From a virus: DNA of 61,186 bases. Each line of letters starts with the position of its first letter. Positions within the stretch are counted from its first letter, which is position 1. Below are positions 6,882 to 17,671 of the stretch, piece after piece. Both the position numbers and the translations under genes were made by a program. Where the stretch lies: positions 1 to 61,186 of IMG/VR virus record IMGVR_UViG_3300049347_000001; one strand, 5' to 3'. The notes beneath the pieces are model-generated. The model searched no databases and was not told the origin of the DNA. It worked only from the letters and a program-made list of their open reading frames with translations.

Positions 6882-7274
6882 TCAGGGCTGCACGGCCCAG
6901 GCGGGCACGTGCGCGGGGTTCGCCATCGGCAACTGGTGCAGCGGGACGGGCGTGGCGCACATCTGGCGGATCTGCTCGCCGGGGATCTCCTGCGTCTTCG
7001 CGACGACGTGCTCGGCGAGGACGCCGATGGTCAGGCGGTGTTCCAGGTCGGCGATCTGCTGCTCGAGCCCGCGGACTGTCTCCGCATGCCGCTCGTCGAT
7101 GCGGGCGACGGTGTCGGTGTGCTCGCGTTCCTGGTCGTCGAGCTGGACGCCGAGTCCCTTGATGAGGGCGTTGGCGCCGCCGAGGAGGAACTTGAGGCGC
7201 TCCACCTCGTCTGCCGCGCGGTGCTTGCGGGCGGGTCGGGTACGGCGGGTGGGCAGCCGGTCGATGATGCTCAC
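6882..7274 (-). CDS. Hypothetical coiled-coil protein, 130 aa
   Basis: Track ORF 6882..7334 trimmed to GTG 7274 (GTGA overlap with stop 7271-7273); heptad-like LEQQIADLEHRL. Confidence 0.6.
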   Translation of the reverse strand: MSIIDRLPTRRTRPARKHRAADEVERLKFLLGGANALIKGLGVQLDDQEREHTDTVARIDERHAETVRGLEQQIADLEHRLTIGVLAEHVVAKTQEIPGEQIRQMCATPVPLHQLPMANPAHVPAWAVQP

Positions 7275-10951: not shown

Positions 10952-12313
10952 GTGCCGGGATATATCGAAGACCGCTGGTACAAGAAGGGCCCGGACGGCA
11001 AGCGCAACGTCCCTACGGACAGGCACGGCCAGGGTAAACGCTATAAGGCCACCGGCATTCCAGGCGTGCGCGCCCGGTCCTTCCCCGACGGCAAGCTGAC
11101 TGCGGCGAAGAAGTGGCTGGCCGACGCCCAGACCGACAGCACGCGCGGAGAGTTCTACGATCCGCGGGACGGCACCATCACCCTCGACGCCTACGTGCGC
11201 AATCACTGGTGGCCGACCACCCGTTACCCTCCCACGACGAAGGCCTCCGTCAAGTCCAAGGTCTTCAACCACATCCTCCCGCACGTCGGCGCGCTGTCCC
11301 TGAACCGCATCGGGTTCGAGGAGATCCGCGCCTGGCAGACGCGCGCCGAGCGGGACATCGACGTCGGCACACTCGTCGTGACGTGGGCCCACTTCTCCTC
11401 GATCATGCAAGCGGCGTTCAAGGCGAAACGCATCCCCGCAAATCCATTCCGTGACGACGAGCTGAGAGCCCCGCGGCTGCCCAAGTCGAAAGCCCTGGCG
11501 TGGCCGCAGGAAACTGTGCTCGCCATCAGGTCGGCTCTGCCCGAGCGGTACCGCATCTTCGTCGACCTGGCGGTCGGCGCCGGCCTGCGGCAAGGGGAGA
11601 CGTTCGCCTTCTCCCCCGATGATGTCGACGGCGAGGACATCAACGTCGTCCGGCAGATCGTGAAGGTGGGCGGCCGGTTCGCGTTCGCGCCGCCGAAGGG
11701 CAACAAGGAGCGCGTCGCGCCCTGCGCGCCAGAGCTGGCGAAGGCCGTCAAGGAGTACGCCAACCGCTTCCCGTCGGTGGCCGTGACGCTCCCGTGGGTG
11801 GATCCCGACCGGCCGAACCTCGCCTGGGACGAGCGGCCGAAGCGCACAGTCCGGCTGCTCGTCACCACACAGTTCACGGCAGGCGCCAACGGCGGAGCGG
11901 TCACGAGGGACACGTTCAACGACCGGCAGTGGAAGCCGGCTCTGCGGAACGCGGGGCTGATCGACGCCCCGGACGTCACGTGGCACGAGCCGACGAACGG
12001 GAAGCAGCCCTGGCGCAAGGAGGTGTGGGCGATGCCGCGGGAGTTCGGCTTCCACGTCCTGCGCCACACGTTCGCTAGCGTCGTCCTGGCCGAGGGTGAG
12101 ACCATTACCCAGCTGGCTGCCTGGCTGGGGCACGCGGATCCGGCGTTCACGCTGCGGACCTACGTGCACTTCATGCCGAAGTCAGGGAGCCGAGGGCGGG
12201 CGGCCATCGGCCGGTTCATGACCGGCGAGCCGGCTGAGCCCGTAGGACTCCCCGGAGATATCCCTGAAATGGATCTCCCCAGATCCTCCCCAGAGATCGT
12301 TACCCACGACTGA
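10952..12313 (+). CDS. int: Tyrosine integrase, 453 aa
   Basis: Catalytic signature readable: VGAGLRQGE (R), HVLRHTFAS (HxxR), LGHADPAFTLRTYVH (H..Y); long N-terminal arm-binding-type region; adjacent to a non-coding attP-like gap. Confidence 0.9.
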   Translation: MPGYIEDRWYKKGPDGKRNVPTDRHGQGKRYKATGIPGVRARSFPDGKLTAAKKWLADAQTDSTRGEFYDPRDGTITLDAYVRNHWWPTTRYPPTTKASVKSKVFNHILPHVGALSLNRIGFEEIRAWQTRAERDIDVGTLVVTWAHFSSIMQAAFKAKRIPANPFRDDELRAPRLPKSKALAWPQETVLAIRSALPERYRIFVDLAVGAGLRQGETFAFSPDDVDGEDINVVRQIVKVGGRFAFAPPKGNKERVAPCAPELAKAVKEYANRFPSVAVTLPWVDPDRPNLAWDERPKRTVRLLVTTQFTAGANGGAVTRDTFNDRQWKPALRNAGLIDAPDVTWHEPTNGKQPWRKEVWAMPREFGFHVLRHTFASVVLAEGETITQLAAWLGHADPAFTLRTYVHFMPKSGSRGRAAIGRFMTGEPAEPVGLPGDIPEMDLPRSSPEIVTHD

Positions 12314-12676: not shown

Positions 12677-12916
12677 TCATCCCGGACACCTCCCGAGGTG
12701 TCCCGGCTCGTAGTCCCGCCCCGCCCGCGCGGCGTCCTCGCGCCTTATGTCCTCCATGGCGATGACGCAGTCCTCGCAGCCGCGCACCTCGCGCTCGCCG
12801 TCGGCCCGAGGGTGGATGGCGCCTACGACTGCGGTCCGCACCAACCCCTTGGAGGGATGGCGGAAGCAGATCCCGTCTCTCCACTCGTACAGATCGAGGA
12901 TCTGCTGTCGGTCCAT
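12677..12916 (-). CDS. Hypothetical protein, 79 aa
   Basis: ATG 12916 with AGGAGA RBS; high GC3; MDRQQILDLYEWRDGICFRHPSKG..VRGCEDCVIAMEDI; no domain recognised. Confidence 0.6.
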   Translation of the reverse strand: MDRQQILDLYEWRDGICFRHPSKGLVRTAVVGAIHPRADGEREVRGCEDCVIAMEDIRREDAARAGRDYEPGHLGRCPG

Positions 12917-13166
12917 CTGTGTCTCCTGATGTGGCGGCCGGCAGGGGGATGCAGGGGGCGTGGGTCGAGTGCCCGGGTTGTGCGGCTGGATGCCGGGTGA
13001 GATGGTGGCTCACTCGAACGAGTGAACACACGTTCGAATCATGGACACTACATGGAGCCCTGCGGCATATGCCAGGTCGCTGCAGGGCGGGTGGCCAGAT
13101 CCAAGATCAAATAATGCCCGGTAAACCGGGCTGACTTATGATGATCTTCGTCAGAGCGTGTGACAG

Positions 13167-13409: not shown

Positions 13410-13568
13410 CTTCTTGTCAACTCAACACGGCGCACACGATCTCCACAAGAGTGCAGCATGCATATATGGCGGTGGATTCTGCACGTCAGTTGTGAACCTA
13501 TGACCCGCTGTTGATCCTCTGGCCAGGGCTAATCCGCAAAATGGGTGTCAGAACCCATGACGTCGGCG

Positions 13569-13904
13569 TCAGTCGATGCACGCATCCAGGGCGCGCGCGG
13601 CCTGCCCGAGCGTCTGGACGTGCAGGGCGGCGGAGCGCAGGCCGCGGCCGAGGTCGCCGAACAGTGCACCCTGGGCGCCCAGGAGGGCCGCCTCGCACGC
13701 TTGCCAGGCGGCGCCTTCGCGCGGGAGCCGGTCCTGTCGGCGGCGGACAGCCTCGGCGAGCGGGCCTATGGCGGCCCGGAGTTCGGCCTCGATGCGCCGG
13801 CAGTCGTCGATGGTGGGCAGGATGCCGGTCGCGGCTTCGGCTTCAACGATGAGCGCCGCGTAGCGCTGGTGTGGCGCGATGGTCTGGTCCGTAGGCTGGG
13901 TCAT
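13569..13904 (-). CDS. Small all-helical protein, 111 aa (DUF6415-like, from memory)
   Basis: Track ORF 13569..13961 trimmed to ATG 13904 (GGAG RBS); CRRIEAELRAAIGPLAEAV...GLRSAALHVQTLGQAARALDACID; divergent from the GntR gene. Confidence 0.5.
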   Translation of the reverse strand: MTQPTDQTIAPHQRYAALIVEAEAATGILPTIDDCRRIEAELRAAIGPLAEAVRRRQDRLPREGAAWQACEAALLGAQGALFGDLGRGLRSAALHVQTLGQAARALDACID

Positions 13905-13973
13905 GCGACGCTCCGCTCGCCGGCCGGTCTCCCCGGCCGTGCCTGGTCGCGGGGGCTGCATAACAGCAGCTTA

Positions 13974-13991
13974 GCCATAGCATGCTATGGC
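13974..13991. promoter_or_regulatory. 18-bp perfect palindrome, candidate GntR operator
   Basis: GCCATAGCATGCTATGGC read directly, centred in the divergent gap between 13904 (-) and the GntR gene (+). Confidence 0.6.
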
Positions 13992-14045
13992 GTGCCACGT
14001 ATGCGACCGCTCGCGTGGTACACCCTGGCGTGTCACGTTGACCGA

Positions 14046-14294
14046 GTGATCGAATTCGAGGCGGATGTGCCTAGGTGGCGGCAGGTAGCGGAGGTGATCC
14101 GAGGGCGGATCACGGACGGCACGTACCCGCCTCGCACGCGCGTCCCGTCGGTCGTCCAGCTGGCCACCGAGTTCGGTATCGCGCAGGCCACCGCACAGAA
14201 AGTTCACCGCGGGTTGCGGGATGAAGGGCTCATCTACACGGAGCCGGGCCTGGGCTCCTTCGTCACGGAGTTGCCCCGGCCGGCCGGTTCATAG
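14046..14294 (+). CDS. Minimal GntR-family winged-HTH regulator (no effector domain), about 83-98 aa
   Basis: In frame within track ORF 13545..14294; GTG 14046 (alt ATG 14001). WRQVAEVIRGRITDGTYPPRTRVPSVVQLATEFGIAQATAQKVHRGLRDEGLIYTEPGLGSFV. Confidence 0.7.
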   Translation: MIEFEADVPRWRQVAEVIRGRITDGTYPPRTRVPSVVQLATEFGIAQATAQKVHRGLRDEGLIYTEPGLGSFVTELPRPAGS

Positions 14295-14328
14295 CCCGCT
14301 GTCGGACCCCGGATCTAGACTGATCGCC

Positions 14329-14508
14329 ATGTCTCCCACTCCCCCGGCCCCGGGTCCTGCGCGGTCTGCTGCGGCCGTGGATGCGGAGATTCGTGCGCTG
14401 CTGCTGTCGACGGGCGGCTGGCTGTGGGGGCCGACCCGGGAGCGGTACGAGCGGCTGCGGGACGAGTGGGTTGAGGCTGTGCGCGGCGAGATGATGACCG
14501 CGGCGTAG
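14329..14508 (+). CDS. Hypothetical protein, 59 aa
   Basis: ATG 14329 within track ORF 14221..14508; MSPTPPAPGPARSAAAVDAEIRALLLSTGGWLWGPTRERYERLRDEWVEAV..; weak RBS. Confidence 0.4.
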   Translation: MSPTPPAPGPARSAAAVDAEIRALLLSTGGWLWGPTRERYERLRDEWVEAVRGEMMTAA

Positions 14509-14639
14509 CGCCGCCCGGGTCCCGCCGTCGGACGGCCGCCACTGCGCCCCTGGTGTGGAGGCTAGGTGGCTACAAAGAAGCGGGCGCGTGCTGCGCAGTC
14601 ACGCACGGGACGCCCCTGCGTTCAGGATACGGTGCCAGC

Positions 14640-14890
14640 GTTGCAGCCCGCCCGGGGTTCCACGCTCGGGCGGGGCCTCAGCAACTCACTCAGCAAACCC
14701 GTGCTTGGCTAGTGCCTGCAACGGATTCCCTCAGGCTACGCGCCGCCACTGACAACGCCGGGCCAGTCGGCTGGCCGCGGGCAGCCGCATGCCTCCCGTG
14801 GGGAGCCGGGAGGCGCGGCGGGCCCTGCCGACGGCGACGCAGGCAGGGCCCGAGAGGGGATTCCACCCGGGGGTGGAGCGGGATCCCTCC
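14640..14890. other. Cluster of five GC-rich stem-loops in a 457-bp non-coding gap (candidate structured RNA or recombinase site)
   Basis: Stems read directly: 14647-54/14667-74 (8 bp), 14761-66/14771-76 (6 bp), 14792-98/14807-13 (7 bp), 14820-29/14842-51 (10 bp), nested 14857-61/14883-87 with 14863-67/14872-76. Track ORFs here have poor GC3. Confidence 0.3.
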
Positions 14891-14965
14891 CGCACACCAT
14901 GCACCAGAATCCAGCCAGCGGGATAGATCACGGCCGGAAGTCGTCGGGCCGAACTGTCGAGCGGA

Positions 14966-15166
14966 TCAGATGCAGCCGCGCTGTACCACGAACAGGGCGG
15001 CCCGGCTCGGGATGAGGCGCTGCGGCTCCTCTTGCGGCGAGATCGTGAAGCGCGCACCGCAGACGCAGGTGACGCGGGTCCGTCCGGTGGGCAGGTAGAC
15101 GACCTCACCGGACGGGTGGACGGCCGGACGAAGGTCTGGGGTGAAGGTGTATGCGTGAAGGGTCAT
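14966..15166 (-). CDS. Hypothetical protein, 66 aa (last gene of the recombinase mini-operon)
   Basis: ATG 15166; high GC3; MTLHAYTFTPDLRPAVHPSGEVVYLPTGRTRVTCVCGARFTISPQ... Confidence 0.5.
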   Translation of the reverse strand: MTLHAYTFTPDLRPAVHPSGEVVYLPTGRTRVTCVCGARFTISPQEEPQRLIPSRAALFVVQRGCI

Positions 15167-15220
15167 GGCCGCAGGGTTCCAGCATCCCGACGAAGATCAT
15201 TCCGGGCTGCGGGCGGGCGG

Positions 15221-16249
15221 TCACAGGCCGATGTCCTCGGACGCGGCGTCGGTCCACTTGTCGGCTTCGCGGATGTAGCCCCAGAAGGCGGGGCTGTTGT
15301 CTGCGTGTCCGGACTGGGCGCGGATCTTCTCTTCGCGCTTCCCGGCGACTCGGCTGGCGGTGATGAATCCGGCCCGCATCGAGTGTCCGGTGAGGCGGAC
15401 GGCGAGCCCGGCGCGTTCGGCGTTGCGGGCGATGATCTCGCGGACGGCTTCCGGGGAGAGGTGGCCGGTGCCGAGGTTGCCCCAGATGTCGATGGCGACG
15501 AAGGCGGGCCCGGTCTCGATCCCGGCTGCGGCTTTCCAGGTGAGCCATGCGCGGACGGGGCAGGTGTCGGGGTTCTTGCCGTAGGCGACGGCGACGTTGC
15601 GGGGCGGTCGGCCTTTGACGGCGGGCACGTCCACGGCGAGGCCCTTGCTGCCGACGATGATGCTGTCGGCGCGGAGGGCGGCGACTTCGGCGGAGCGTCC
15701 GGCGATACCGAAGGCGAGGAGCCAGAGTGCGCGGTCGCGAAGTCCGGCGAGCCCTGCGGGTACGGCGGCGGCCATCTGCCGGAGCTGTTCGGGGGTGACG
15801 GCGGCGGCCTTGCCCCGTCCGCGCGCCATGCGTTCGGGGTCGTGCTTGAGCGGCTTGAGTGCCTGCCGCGCGGCGACGGTTGCGGCCTTGGGGACTTCGA
15901 CCCCATGTTCGTTCCGCGCGGTGACGGTGACGCCGGTGATCCGGCGGTCGATGCTGTTGGGTGCGGCGAGCTTAATGGTGTCGAGCCAGACGACGAACCC
16001 GACGAGCGTGCCCTTGGTGACGGCGGTCGAGGCGATCCGCTTGCCGGTGCGTTCCCCCAGCCAGTCGTGGAACTCCTCCCAGAGTGCCCAGTCGTTGGCG
16101 TAGCCGCGCTTCGTGTTGTGGGGACGAATGGCGTCGAGGTGCTTCTCGGCTGCCTCTTCCATAGCGGCGAGGACGGCGAGCGTCGCAGCGTCGTAGACGA
16201 CGGGGGTGGCGTCCGGGGCCCGCGTGACGATGTCGGTCACTCCTCGCAC
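15221..16249 (-). CDS. Second tyrosine recombinase (Cre/Xer-like), 342 aa
   Basis: AFGIAGRSAEVAALR (R), GHSMRAGFITA (HxxR), SGHADNSPAFWGYI (H..Y); N-terminus NTKRGYANDWALWEEFHDWL resembles a Cre/Xer core-binding domain. Alternative start GTG 16240 (GTGA overlap with upstream stop). Confidence 0.85.
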   Translation of the reverse strand: MRGVTDIVTRAPDATPVVYDAATLAVLAAMEEAAEKHLDAIRPHNTKRGYANDWALWEEFHDWLGERTGKRIASTAVTKGTLVGFVVWLDTIKLAAPNSIDRRITGVTVTARNEHGVEVPKAATVAARQALKPLKHDPERMARGRGKAAAVTPEQLRQMAAAVPAGLAGLRDRALWLLAFGIAGRSAEVAALRADSIIVGSKGLAVDVPAVKGRPPRNVAVAYGKNPDTCPVRAWLTWKAAAGIETGPAFVAIDIWGNLGTGHLSPEAVREIIARNAERAGLAVRLTGHSMRAGFITASRVAGKREEKIRAQSGHADNSPAFWGYIREADKWTDAASEDIGL

Positions 16250-16482
16250 CCCAGGTTCTTCAGGTCAGGGTGATGCCGCCACATCAGGATCGCCTGGGTA
16301 TCAAGCACTGCCTGACCGGCGGGAGTCTGCTCGACCGGCTTGAAGCCGTTCGCATACTCACAGTCCGCGTCTTGGCAAGCGTGATCGTTTCCGCCGGGCC
16401 AGTAAATAAGGGGCGTCTGGTGGATTGGGCAGTGGCACCGATCGGTGCAGCAGTGGGGCCTTCCGTCAGGGCTTTGAGGCAT
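16237..16482 (-). CDS. Cys/His-rich small protein, 81 aa
   Basis: Track start 16488 is TTG; ATG 16482 preferred. MPQSPDGRPHCCTDRCHCPIHQ...HACQDADCEY; stop overlaps the recombinase start; GC3 lower than neighbours. Confidence 0.5.
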   Translation of the reverse strand: MPQSPDGRPHCCTDRCHCPIHQTPLIYWPGGNDHACQDADCEYANGFKPVEQTPAGQAVLDTQAILMWRHHPDLKNLGCEE

Positions 16483-16580
16483 GCCCAATCGTACCGTTTT
16501 GGCGCCCTCGATATGGCATGTTATCGAGAGCTGTAGCGCCCAACCGGGTTCATTAGACGACCGTTTGATGAATGCATGAA

Positions 16581-16622
16581 CCTGTAGACAGGTCTACAGG
16601 TCGTCTGTAGAGTGGTCTACAG
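16581..16622. promoter_or_regulatory. Two adjacent dyad operators (CTGTAGAC / GTCTACAG)
   Basis: CCTGTAGAC-AG-GTCTACAGG (16581-16600, perfect 9-bp arms) and CTGTAGAG-TG-GTCTACAG (16605-16622); centres about 23 bp apart; in the divergent gap between 16482 (-) and 16656 (+). Confidence 0.55.
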
Positions 16623-16655
16623 ATGGAGCGAGGGGCGCTCCAGGAGGGGACCACC

Positions 16656-17012
16656 ATGCAGCGCTACGAACTCGAAGCCTTCCTCGGCGACGACCACGGC
16701 CTCGATGAGGACCAGCTCGCCGAACTCCTCGCCAAGGCCGACGAGATCGAGGAGCGTTGCGACGCGGACCCGGACGAGATGGGCGAGGAGTTTGTCGCCG
16801 CCTACCGCCTGATGCGGGAGAACCCCAGCGAGGTCGTGAAGGAACTGGCTGAGCGGCGCCTCGCGGCAGTCCTCGCCGAGGCCAACGCCCTGGCTGCCCT
16901 CCGGCAGGCCGCCATCGTCCTCATCGAGCGCGGCGACTTCACGGAGTCCGGGTTCTCCAGGGCGGCCGGGGTGGACCGGATGACCGTCCGAAAGTGGCTC
17001 GGCAAACGCTGA
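16656..17012 (+). CDS. HTH regulator, 118 aa
   Basis: Track ORF 16623..17012 trimmed to ATG 16656 (AGGAGGGG RBS); acidic N-half; C-terminal SGFSRAAGVDRMTVRKWLGKR = HTH. Confidence 0.6.
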   Translation: MQRYELEAFLGDDHGLDEDQLAELLAKADEIEERCDADPDEMGEEFVAAYRLMRENPSEVVKELAERRLAAVLAEANALAALRQAAIVLIERGDFTESGFSRAAGVDRMTVRKWLGKR

Positions 17013-17020
17013 GTACGCGA

Positions 17021-17064
17021 AGCGCCCCCGCTCCCCTGCCGGTTGGCAGAGAAGCGGGGGCGCT
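17021..17064. terminator. Bidirectional terminator hairpin between convergent units
   Basis: agcgcccccgct-[..ctgcc ggtt ggcag..]-agcgggggcgct: 12-bp outer stem plus 5-bp inner stem. Confidence 0.65.
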
Positions 17065-17065
17065 G

Positions 17066-17155
17066 TCAGTCTTCGTCGTCGGGCGGGGGTATCGGTGGCG
17101 GTTCGAGGAACGGGCGTGGCGACAGCCAGAACGGCGGGTCAGGTTCGTCGTCCAC
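17066..17155 (-). CDS. Proline-rich micro-ORF, 29 aa (in frame with 17159..17302 across a TGA)
   Basis: Own translation from GTG 17155: VDDEPDPPFWLSPRPFLEPPPIPPPDDED*; below track cutoff. Confidence 0.3.
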   Translation of the reverse strand: MDDEPDPPFWLSPRPFLEPPPIPPPDDED

Positions 17156-17158
17156 AGG

Positions 17159-17302
17159 TCAGCCCGCCTCGACGGGCGGGGGCGGGGCGGCCGGCTCGGG
17201 GATCGGCGGCGGTTCCTCCAGGCCGAGAGCGACGAGGCTGCCGACGTCAGCCCCGCCGTCCTGACGGCGCGGCTCCATCGGCCGCGGGTCACGTGCAGGC
17301 AT
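17159..17302 (-). CDS. Proline-rich small ORF, 47 aa, at the end of the lysis cassette
   Basis: ATG 17302 with GGAG RBS 6 nt upstream; own translation MPARDPRPMEPRRQDGGADVGSLVALGLEEPPPIPEPAAPPPPVEAG*; high GC3. Confidence 0.35.
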   Translation of the reverse strand: MPARDPRPMEPRRQDGGADVGSLVALGLEEPPPIPEPAAPPPPVEAG

Positions 17303-17317
17303 ACCGCACTCCAGTTC

Positions 17318-17671
17318 TCACACGTCGATGTGGTGAATGTACTGGCGGGCCCGATCCGACATCGGCTCGGCCGGCGGCGCCTCAAGCCCGGCCTTCTTGA
17401 TGTGGGACACCAGAGAGCGGACCCGGTACAGGAGCCAGCCGATCGCCTCGTCCTGGTCGCCGATGCGCTTCCGCTGATCCTCCGCCTCAGTCTCCTGCCG
17501 CTGGACGCGGCCTTCCAGGCGCTCGATGGCCTTGCCCTGCTGGGTGGTGATGGCGAGGAAATCATCGCGGCTTTCCTGCCGCCTGGTCCTGCGCGCGGAC
17601 CGGGCCGCCACCACGCCGCCCGCCGTGCCCACCACAGCCAGACCTGCCTGGATCCAGGTGTCGACCGTCAT
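17318..17671 (-). CDS. Lysis-cassette protein with N-terminal TM helix and coiled coil, 117 aa
   Basis: ATG 17671 in ATGA overlap with upstream stop; WIQAGLAVVGTAGGVVAA TM, then charged heptads (RLEGRVQRQETEAEDQRKRI). Confidence 0.55.
   Translation of the reverse strand: MTVDTWIQAGLAVVGTAGGVVAARSARRTRRQESRDDFLAITTQQGKAIERLEGRVQRQETEAEDQRKRIGDQDEAIGWLLYRVRSLVSHIKKAGLEAPPAEPMSDRARQYIHHIDV

Follow-up and report, generated by a model that had tools for sequence, protein, structure and literature searches.

The 61,186-bp genome of a temperate Streptomyces phage, taken whole as the window of this analysis (IMG/VR record IMGVR_UViG_3300049347_000001, positions 1 to 61,186), encodes a tyrosine recombinase of 339 amino acids (aa; 15221-16240, minus strand, from the GTG at 16240) besides its canonical 453-aa phage integrase. 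In silico this recombinase is kin to Cre of phage P1, its catalytic residues are intact, and it is accompanied by a conserved single dyad whose design recurs in distant clades. Taken alone, the assignment of a Cre-type enzyme with the 34-bp dyad at 16501-16534 as its target site is one we make with good confidence. As for its role, we give somewhat better than even chances to recombination between genome copies through this dyad, by which multimers would be turned into monomers, together with autoregulation of the operon. By inference, the enzyme would bind the dyad, be catalytically active, resolve multimers and regulate its own expression.

Kinship of the recombinase

The reading frame of the gene (15221-16249, minus strand) is open for 342 aa from the GTG at 16249. 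Since its homologues are 338-340 aa long and its fourth codon (GTG 16240) shares the sequence GTGA with the stop codon of the upstream open reading frame (ORF), the 339-aa product is the likelier one; residue numbering throughout is that of the 342-aa form. The match to Pfam family PF00589 scored 29.3 bits, narrowly over the cut-off of 27.1. When 69 homologues with identities down to 28% were aligned, R185, K212, R292 and Y325 proved invariant and H289 nearly invariant, and H315 falls on the position of the family consensus GH. This R-K-H-R-H-Y set bears out the proposal, made in an earlier note on this DNA, of a complete, catalytically intact second tyrosine recombinase of simple Cre/Xer architecture.

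The profile of the 69 homologues found P1 Cre at E = 8e-31, over Cre residues 38-332 and covering both domains, and found an archaeal Xer-like chain at 2e-20, XerD at 4e-15 and IntI4 at 1e-11; a single-sequence search of PDB chains gave marginal matches only and did not reach Cre. The AlphaFold2 model (predicted local distance difference test, pLDDT, 96; predicted template modelling score, pTM, 0.87) consists of five N-terminal helices and a catalytic domain and has no arm-binding domain. The top 19 and more Foldseek matches were all Cre chains (template modelling score, TM, 0.65-0.74; for the best of them 0.68-0.74 over 310-325 columns, at about 16% identity), and Cre came ahead of IntI4, XerA, lambda Int and XerH. 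R185, K212, H289, R292, H315 and Y325 align with R173, K201, H289, R292, W315 and Y324 of Cre, which are listed as the catalytic residues of that enzyme (PMC10250229).

Several other types of tyrosine recombinase were considered and rejected. For XerC/XerD, model TIGR02224 gave 29.6 bits (cut-off 335) and TIGR02225 gave 17.2 bits (cut-off 330), and the Xer, integron and invertase models of NCBIfam together stayed at 13-30 bits against cut-offs of 220-335. An invertase of the Fim/Rci type was dismissed on a score of 13 bits against 221 (NF007370) and on the presence of just one dyad in 61 kb, and a lambda-type Int on the missing arm-binding domain and on the position of the site inside a related prophage (locus L003, see below). 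With the PHROG integrase family the recombinase scored weakly, at 1.9e-10, compared with 1.2e-34 for the 453-aa Int. The label Cre/Xer-like given earlier can be kept in its first half and dropped in its second, on the strength of the profile match to Cre and the 17-30 bits obtained with XerC/XerD models.

With Cre/loxP of P1 and other Cre-type systems (Dre/rox, VCre, Vika) the window enzyme shares the two-domain architecture, the five-helix N-terminal domain and the catalytic positions. It is of similar length to Cre (339 against 343 aa), and its predicted site resembles loxP in the 13-8-13 dyad, in the ATA/TAT ends of the inner arms, in adjoining the gene and in being present once per genome. 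However, the protein is only about 16% identical to Cre and carries His at the position of Cre Trp315, and the arms of its putative site are less symmetric than those of loxP (9/13). Unlike P1, the window phage integrates via a separate integrase and no partition genes were found in it; its site, unlike loxP, overlaps the predicted promoter of an operon in which a variable ORF is translationally coupled upstream of the recombinase gene. XerC/XerD-dif and archaeal XerA are likewise simple, without an arm-binding domain and with a single site per replicon for dimer resolution, but the spacer here is 8 bp and not 6, and the E-value for Xer is 10-16 orders worse than that for Cre. The 8-bp length of the conserved spacer holds in all clades and does not agree with a dif-like 11-6-11 target. 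In contrast to the XerC/XerD pair, the window element encodes a single recombinase of such kind. In four Streptomyces genomes no XerD match passed the NCBIfam cut-off, a result that carries no weight since only 4 of 14 control genomes pass it. With lambda-type integrases, including the window's own 453-aa Int, the enzyme has in common the catalytic superfamily PF00589.

The predicted site and its recurrence in related loci

Read on the plus strand, the predicted lox-like core (16501-16534) is GGCGCCCTCGATA / TGGCATGT / TATCGAGAGCTGT, arranged 13-8-13. It lies 250 bp upstream of the recombinase gene, its inner arms follow CGATA-N8-TATCG, and its asymmetric 8-bp spacer occupies 16514-16521; the arms are symmetric at 9 of 13 positions, and at 9 of 10 over the inner 10 bp. 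Even with mismatches allowed, the dyad is single-copy in the 61-kb window. It belongs to a block of about 45 nt that was found via stop-to-stop translations of the upstream regions in related loci, with the consensus CTCTCGATAACATGCCATATCGCGGGCG, then a run of A, then CGGTACAAT; the first 28 nt are conserved to at least 90%, and the flanks are not. BLAST with 16480-16560 found this block once per locus in 63 loci, always upstream of the gene and on its strand, at 0.3-2.3 kb. A scan of 760 kb of main-clade loci for ATA-N8-TAT with arms symmetric at 7 or more of 10 positions gave 58 matches, all at the dyad, and in 10 of these, which are variants, the altered arms are as symmetric as before or more so; in locus L013 the inner arms are symmetric at all 10 positions. 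The scan's other matches were three true P1 loxP sites, all in locus L057, which make an accidental positive control. When conserved k-mers were counted, the dyad block was the one non-coding element to emerge upstream of the gene, and what emerged downstream was confined to terminator-like hairpins shared by some of the loci. Published work has likewise looked for the targets of new Cre-type enzymes among palindromes within 1 kb of their genes (PMC10250229).

The loxP sites of L057 deserve a remark of their own. Positions 6910-7125 of this locus hold three canonical loxP (two one way and one the other), spacer fragments and a 24-nt duplication, all inside the recombinase homologue of an isolate-genome prophage, and the cluster looks like a laboratory engineering scar.

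The 457-bp stretch at 14509-14965, suggested earlier as a possible holder of the site, is indeed non-coding, with no frame bias, but it lacks the dyad pattern and is no fixed neighbour of the gene, as gene and orf95 are between about 0.35 and 6 kb apart in relatives. Boxes of the LexA, BldD, AdpA and WhiG types were also compared informally, by eye, with the dyad, and none fits it.

The recombinase itself is widespread. A word-indexed search gave more than 120 clusters at 66-93% identity, nearly all of 337-345 aa, which come from Streptomyces genomes and metagenomes. An exhaustive search yielded 103 representative clusters with E<=1e-30 and 2,984 with E<=1e-10; the module is common to more than 100 related prophages and plasmids. 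In the 68 related loci of IMG/VR the recombinase is 76-91% identical and the flanking proteins are 30-80% identical or absent, and the gene invariably has the lysis cassette on one side and the immunity genes on the other. A locus search from P0129 returned only its own phage. Homologues of 36-59% identity occur on 183 plasmid records, and among those checked the plasmids of 33-199 kb are circular and those of 279-685 kb linear. The idea that homologues are restricted to circular plasmids was thereby refuted, as all five checked plasmids of 279-685 kb are linear.

If the dyad is the site of the enzyme, distant homologues should possess a site of like design written in other letters, and this was borne out. 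The closest homologue from an isolated phage is pZL12.36c of ZL12 (41.7% identical over 90%), the sole tyrosine recombinase in the 90 kb of that phage. It shares with the window gene its genome position, after the tail and lysis genes, and the dyad design, GCGATA-AGCTCACA-TATCGC, 49 nt before the gene. ZL12 has been reported as a circular plasmid with ParAB (PMC4487206), in contrast to the window phage, which has an integrase and in which no ParAB was found; no function of pZL12.36c was found in the literature searched. Seven distant loci have a GATA-N8-TATC dyad with 8-12 of 13 arm positions symmetric, which is the only such element in 3.4-19 kb and stands 20-90 nt ahead of the operon's first gene. 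Given as inner 10-bp arm, spacer and inner 10-bp arm, with the identity to the window recombinase in brackets, the dyads read GTTCGCGATA-AGCTCACA-TATCGCCAGG in ZL12 (42%), ACCCCGGATA-TGTATGTG-TATCCGGGGC in an 80-kb metagenomic phage (44%), GCCTTGGATA-AGATGCGA-TATCCGAGGC in Streptomyces plasmids both circular and linear (58%), ACTCACGATA-AGCTCACA-TATCGTGAGT in a Nocardiopsis plasmid (42%; 12/13 with 13-bp arms), ACTCCCGATA-AGCTCACA-TATCGTGAGT in an S. cellulosae plasmid (45%; 9/13) and ACCGTTGATA-ATGTTTCT-TATCAACGGT in record PP395638 (31%; 11/13). A 43%-identical homologue on a Streptomyces plasmid also has a dyad of the same design. Across the clades the arms change and the 8-bp length of the spacer stays constant. 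Ten other distant loci gave no clean dyad: in three (L164, L165, L173) the operon starts beyond the DNA examined, a looser dyad, GGATA-AGCTCCCC, directly precedes the gene in two (L167, L182), and the remaining five have none.

One of these records stands out for another reason. PP395638.1 (L174) is named 'Microcystis phage Mwe-JY05', and the 5.9 kb around its homologue are 74% guanine plus cytosine (GC) and contain a perfect 10-8-10 dyad; this GC looks too high for a Microcystis phage, and the host assignment may need checking.

Upstream of the recombinase the first gene of the operon is an 81-aa Cys/His-rich ORF (16237-16482, minus strand; 83 aa if it starts at TTG 16488), and its ATG (16482-16480) is preceded, after 5 nt, by the -10-like TACGAT at 16488-16493, which together make a predicted leaderless promoter (16482-16493, minus strand). 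TACAAT-N5-ATG is conserved in relatives, and the layout recurs in distant clades. With its centre about 35 nt upstream of the ATG, the dyad would cover the -35 region of this promoter, and occupancy of the site should therefore repress the operon. The same layout, found in several clades with TACAAT or TACGAT as the -10, could mean that the dyad serves mainly as a promoter or operator, with the recombinase acting there as repressor or with a host factor bound to it, and that any true crossover site is elsewhere or lost; the survival of the core beside other recombinases, in genomes without a Cre-type enzyme, points the same way. We nevertheless find this reading improbable, since in the orphan copies (see below) a hairpin takes the place of the -10 and the ATG, so that promoter function is not what these copies keep. 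Moreover, two arms around a constant 8-bp spacer are exactly a Cre-type core site, the dyad scan picks up real loxP too, all the catalytic residues are under selection, and the surroundings of the gene offer no second conserved non-coding element.

The earlier note had the recombinase driven from a different dyad-operator region. Its two 18-bp palindromes, CTGTAGAC-NN-GTCTACAG (16582-16599 and 16605-16622, plus strand, 23 bp apart), are real, but they overlap a rightward sigma-70-like promoter, TAGACA-17-TAGAGT, which faces a divergent helix-turn-helix (HTH) gene, and they have no counterpart in relatives. Unique in the genome, they are probably, to judge from their position, the operator of the HTH gene and lie outside the recombinase unit.

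Possible roles of the enzyme and its site

Our preferred reading, recombination between genome copies, is drawn by analogy with Cre. Two recombinase monomers would bind the two arms of the dyad, two such sites would synapse, and strands would be exchanged within the 8-bp spacer via Tyr325. Because the genome has just one site, the natural substrates would be two copies of the phage genome, either multimers arising from replication or from RecT and RusA activity, or terminally redundant ends that would be cyclised; RecT-like and RusA-like proteins and a DnaB-like helicase are encoded by the phage and are a possible source of multimers. The product would be monomeric circles, fit for the 453-aa integrase or for orderly replication and packaging, and occupancy of the dyad would at the same time repress the recombinase operon. 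Cre performs such recombination between genome copies for P1. Among the four roles put forward earlier (multimer resolution, a second integration specificity, an inversion switch, a hitchhiking integrative module), multimer resolution fits best.

Several observations weigh against this reading. Homologues with the dyad are present on linear plasmids of 279-428 kb, where dimer resolution is unneeded, and in an integrative phage family in which neither ParA nor ParB was found a need for plasmid maintenance is not evident. A dyad core that is 100% identical occurs in genomes without the recombinase, and the site may have another role. The window arms are only 9/13 symmetric, with the family consensus at 8/10 over the inner arms, and the promoter and its autoregulation are read from the letters of the DNA alone. 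Finally, no joint at the dyad or other recombination product was seen in assembled Logan contigs of the source sample and three soil metagenomes, which cannot show rare products. Low-depth 'joints' in the source sample were rejected as noise, being 20-25-nt matches of 151-nt contigs.

Use of the dyad as a second attP for a host attB seems very improbable, although the protein is labelled 'integrase' in many records and some plasmids bearing homologues have been suggested to integrate (PMC4487206). Locus L003 is a prophage in a 9.2-Mb chromosome and the only one traced to its host junction; its end is at the integrase/HTH side, host genes begin beyond the HTH gene, and therefore the module is internal to the prophage, with the site intact beside the gene. 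Site and gene are also adjacent and uninterrupted in every other related locus read. A 20-mer across the spacer and the inner arms is present in only 27 stretches among 185,579 species genomes, nearly all beside a recombinase gene in their immediate context. Together these observations disfavour a second integration system, and so does the absence of an arm-binding domain from the enzyme model. Simple Cre-type reactions favour excision.

The gene sits between the lysis/tail and immunity modules, which is the position of invertases in some other phages, and an inversion switch flipping a promoter or a gene segment was therefore weighed as well. It is extremely improbable: the dyad is single in 61 kb with mismatches allowed, as it is in each related genome, and the relative orientation of site and gene is constant in all loci. 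A 15-nt perfect inverted repeat (12924-12938 and 16275-16289), the right arm of which falls in a non-conserved ORF, was discarded as chance, for 65 of 300 random sequences (22%) contain one. An episomal prophage state, with which the earlier note linked multimer resolution, has no support, as no ParA or ParB family match was obtained in the window and relative L003 is chromosomal. A 61.3-kb S. sabulosicollis contig with an 88% homologue has no terminal repeat and little DNA in common with the window.

The dyad core also exists apart from its enzyme. Three Streptomyces genomes without the recombinase and several IMG/VR contigs carry it 100% identical, with a GC hairpin behind it and, 0.3-1.5 kb further along, a recombinase of another family. 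In five of these orphan loci this recombinase is of the serine type and small, at about 190 aa (L097, L099, L112, L117, L141), in one it is another serine recombinase (L093), and in four an unrelated Xer-like tyrosine recombinase (L075, L081, L096, L145); L097 and L099 are 90 kb apart on one S. acidicola contig, and at one Xer-like locus a dif-like GATAA-N6-TTATC of its own lies close by. In a close relative from an independent soil metagenome (contig depth about 19), 15211-17198 is replaced by about 1.76 kb of other DNA, between flanks of 434 and about 2,750 bases that show few mismatches (at least 90% identity), and this swap takes the recombinase, the upstream ORF, the dyad and the HTH gene as a unit. 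The swap and the orphan sites therefore indicate that the position is a slot for interchangeable site-specific recombinases, and that the dyad can outlive its enzyme.

These findings open the way to an inter-element device, in which the shared site would let the enzyme fuse co-resident or incoming relatives, for module exchange or as a superinfection trap. In accordance with it, the 34-bp core including the spacer is almost invariant in about 60 otherwise mosaic phages, the DNA to either side of the site varies, orphan copies are retained next to recombinases of unrelated kinds, and a metagenomic relative has had the whole of 15211-17198 replaced. However, no cointegrate or hybrid junction was seen in the assembled contigs, the breakpoints of the mosaics fall past the right arm or at the ATG and not within the spacer, and invariance of the spacer may simply reflect a conserved specificity of the enzyme, so we consider such a device rather improbable. 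The same small chance is given to the idea that mosaic Streptomyces prophages and plasmids use the near-invariant site as a shared 'docking' sequence, with the orphan copies as part of the network.

The phage genome and the meaning of the system

The IMG/VR record is a complete virus of about 70% GC with a 127-bp terminal repeat (overlap), and its close relatives all come from Streptomyces genomes or soil metagenomes. On the minus strand, read leftwards, genes for the DnaB-like helicase and the RecT-like and RusA-like proteins come first, followed by the small and large terminase, the portal and the major head protein, then an ORF of tape-measure size, an ORF with a LysM-domain homologue in a related locus, and two small ORFs. 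After these come the recombinase region and the immunity region with GntR-type and XRE-type HTH genes. The 453-aa integrase (10952-12313, plus strand) matches PHROG 1 at 1e-34. Megablast of 14000-17500 against the phage collection gave no match, and an Rfam search of 14300-17100 gave nothing meaningful.

The mini-operon described earlier stands in part. The 81-aa ORF does overlap the recombinase gene from upstream; it occupies a variable 'cargo' position, in which related loci have unrelated ORFs, different in each locus and nearly always ending in a 4-nt overlap with the recombinase start. Its Cys/His-rich protein has no homologue in any related locus searched, matched no Pfam, PHROG or NCBIfam family, and had Atlas scores below 0.9. 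The 66-aa ORF (14966-15166, minus strand), 55 nt past the recombinase stop, is coding-like (GC at third codon positions, GC3, 0.84), but it is outside the conserved unit: only one related locus has a homologue, and it was left outside the swapped segment. The divergent HTH DNA-binding protein (16623-17012, plus strand; PHROG 2311), which probably starts at ATG 16656, has no counterpart in the related loci searched.

Within the non-coding spacer, at about 14770-14850, there is a double hairpin, conserved and GC-rich, whose loop is rich in C; on the minus strand it reads CCTCCCGG-CTCCCCA-CGGGAGG, and its predicted folding energy is about -54 kcal/mol. In 16 related loci it recurs at differing distances downstream of the recombinase. 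It had no Rfam match and could be a terminator or a small RNA.

Some ORFs on the integrase side were also noticed. A 79-aa ORF (12677-12916, minus strand) between the integrase and the XRE gene is coding-like (GC3 0.85), has an AGGAG ribosome-binding site, and falls in a stretch which the earlier note treated as the attP region. In the 249-aa ORF at 13545-14294 (plus strand), with a C-terminal GntR HTH, the real gene is probably of about 87 aa with a start near 14031. The 5' part of the 249-aa frame is overlapped by a 130-aa ORF (13569-13961, minus strand) with homologues in five related loci, one of which has a weak DUF6415 match.

From these results it appears that a sizeable clade of Cre/lox-type systems, apparently uncharacterised, is native to high-GC actinomycetes, and that public labels such as 'integrase', 'XerD' and 'hypothetical protein' should for these proteins read Cre-type. 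As each clade comes with a predicted 34-bp target, the recombinase/site pairs could serve the engineering of Streptomyces genomes and could be orthogonal to Cre/loxP and Dre/rox. It is puzzling that an integrating phage with its own integrase keeps a Cre/lox-type system under strong purifying selection, and that the same site adjoins interchangeable recombinases of other families. If docking were to prove true, the system would be a site-specific engine of phage mosaicism or a superinfection trap, and not a housekeeping resolver.

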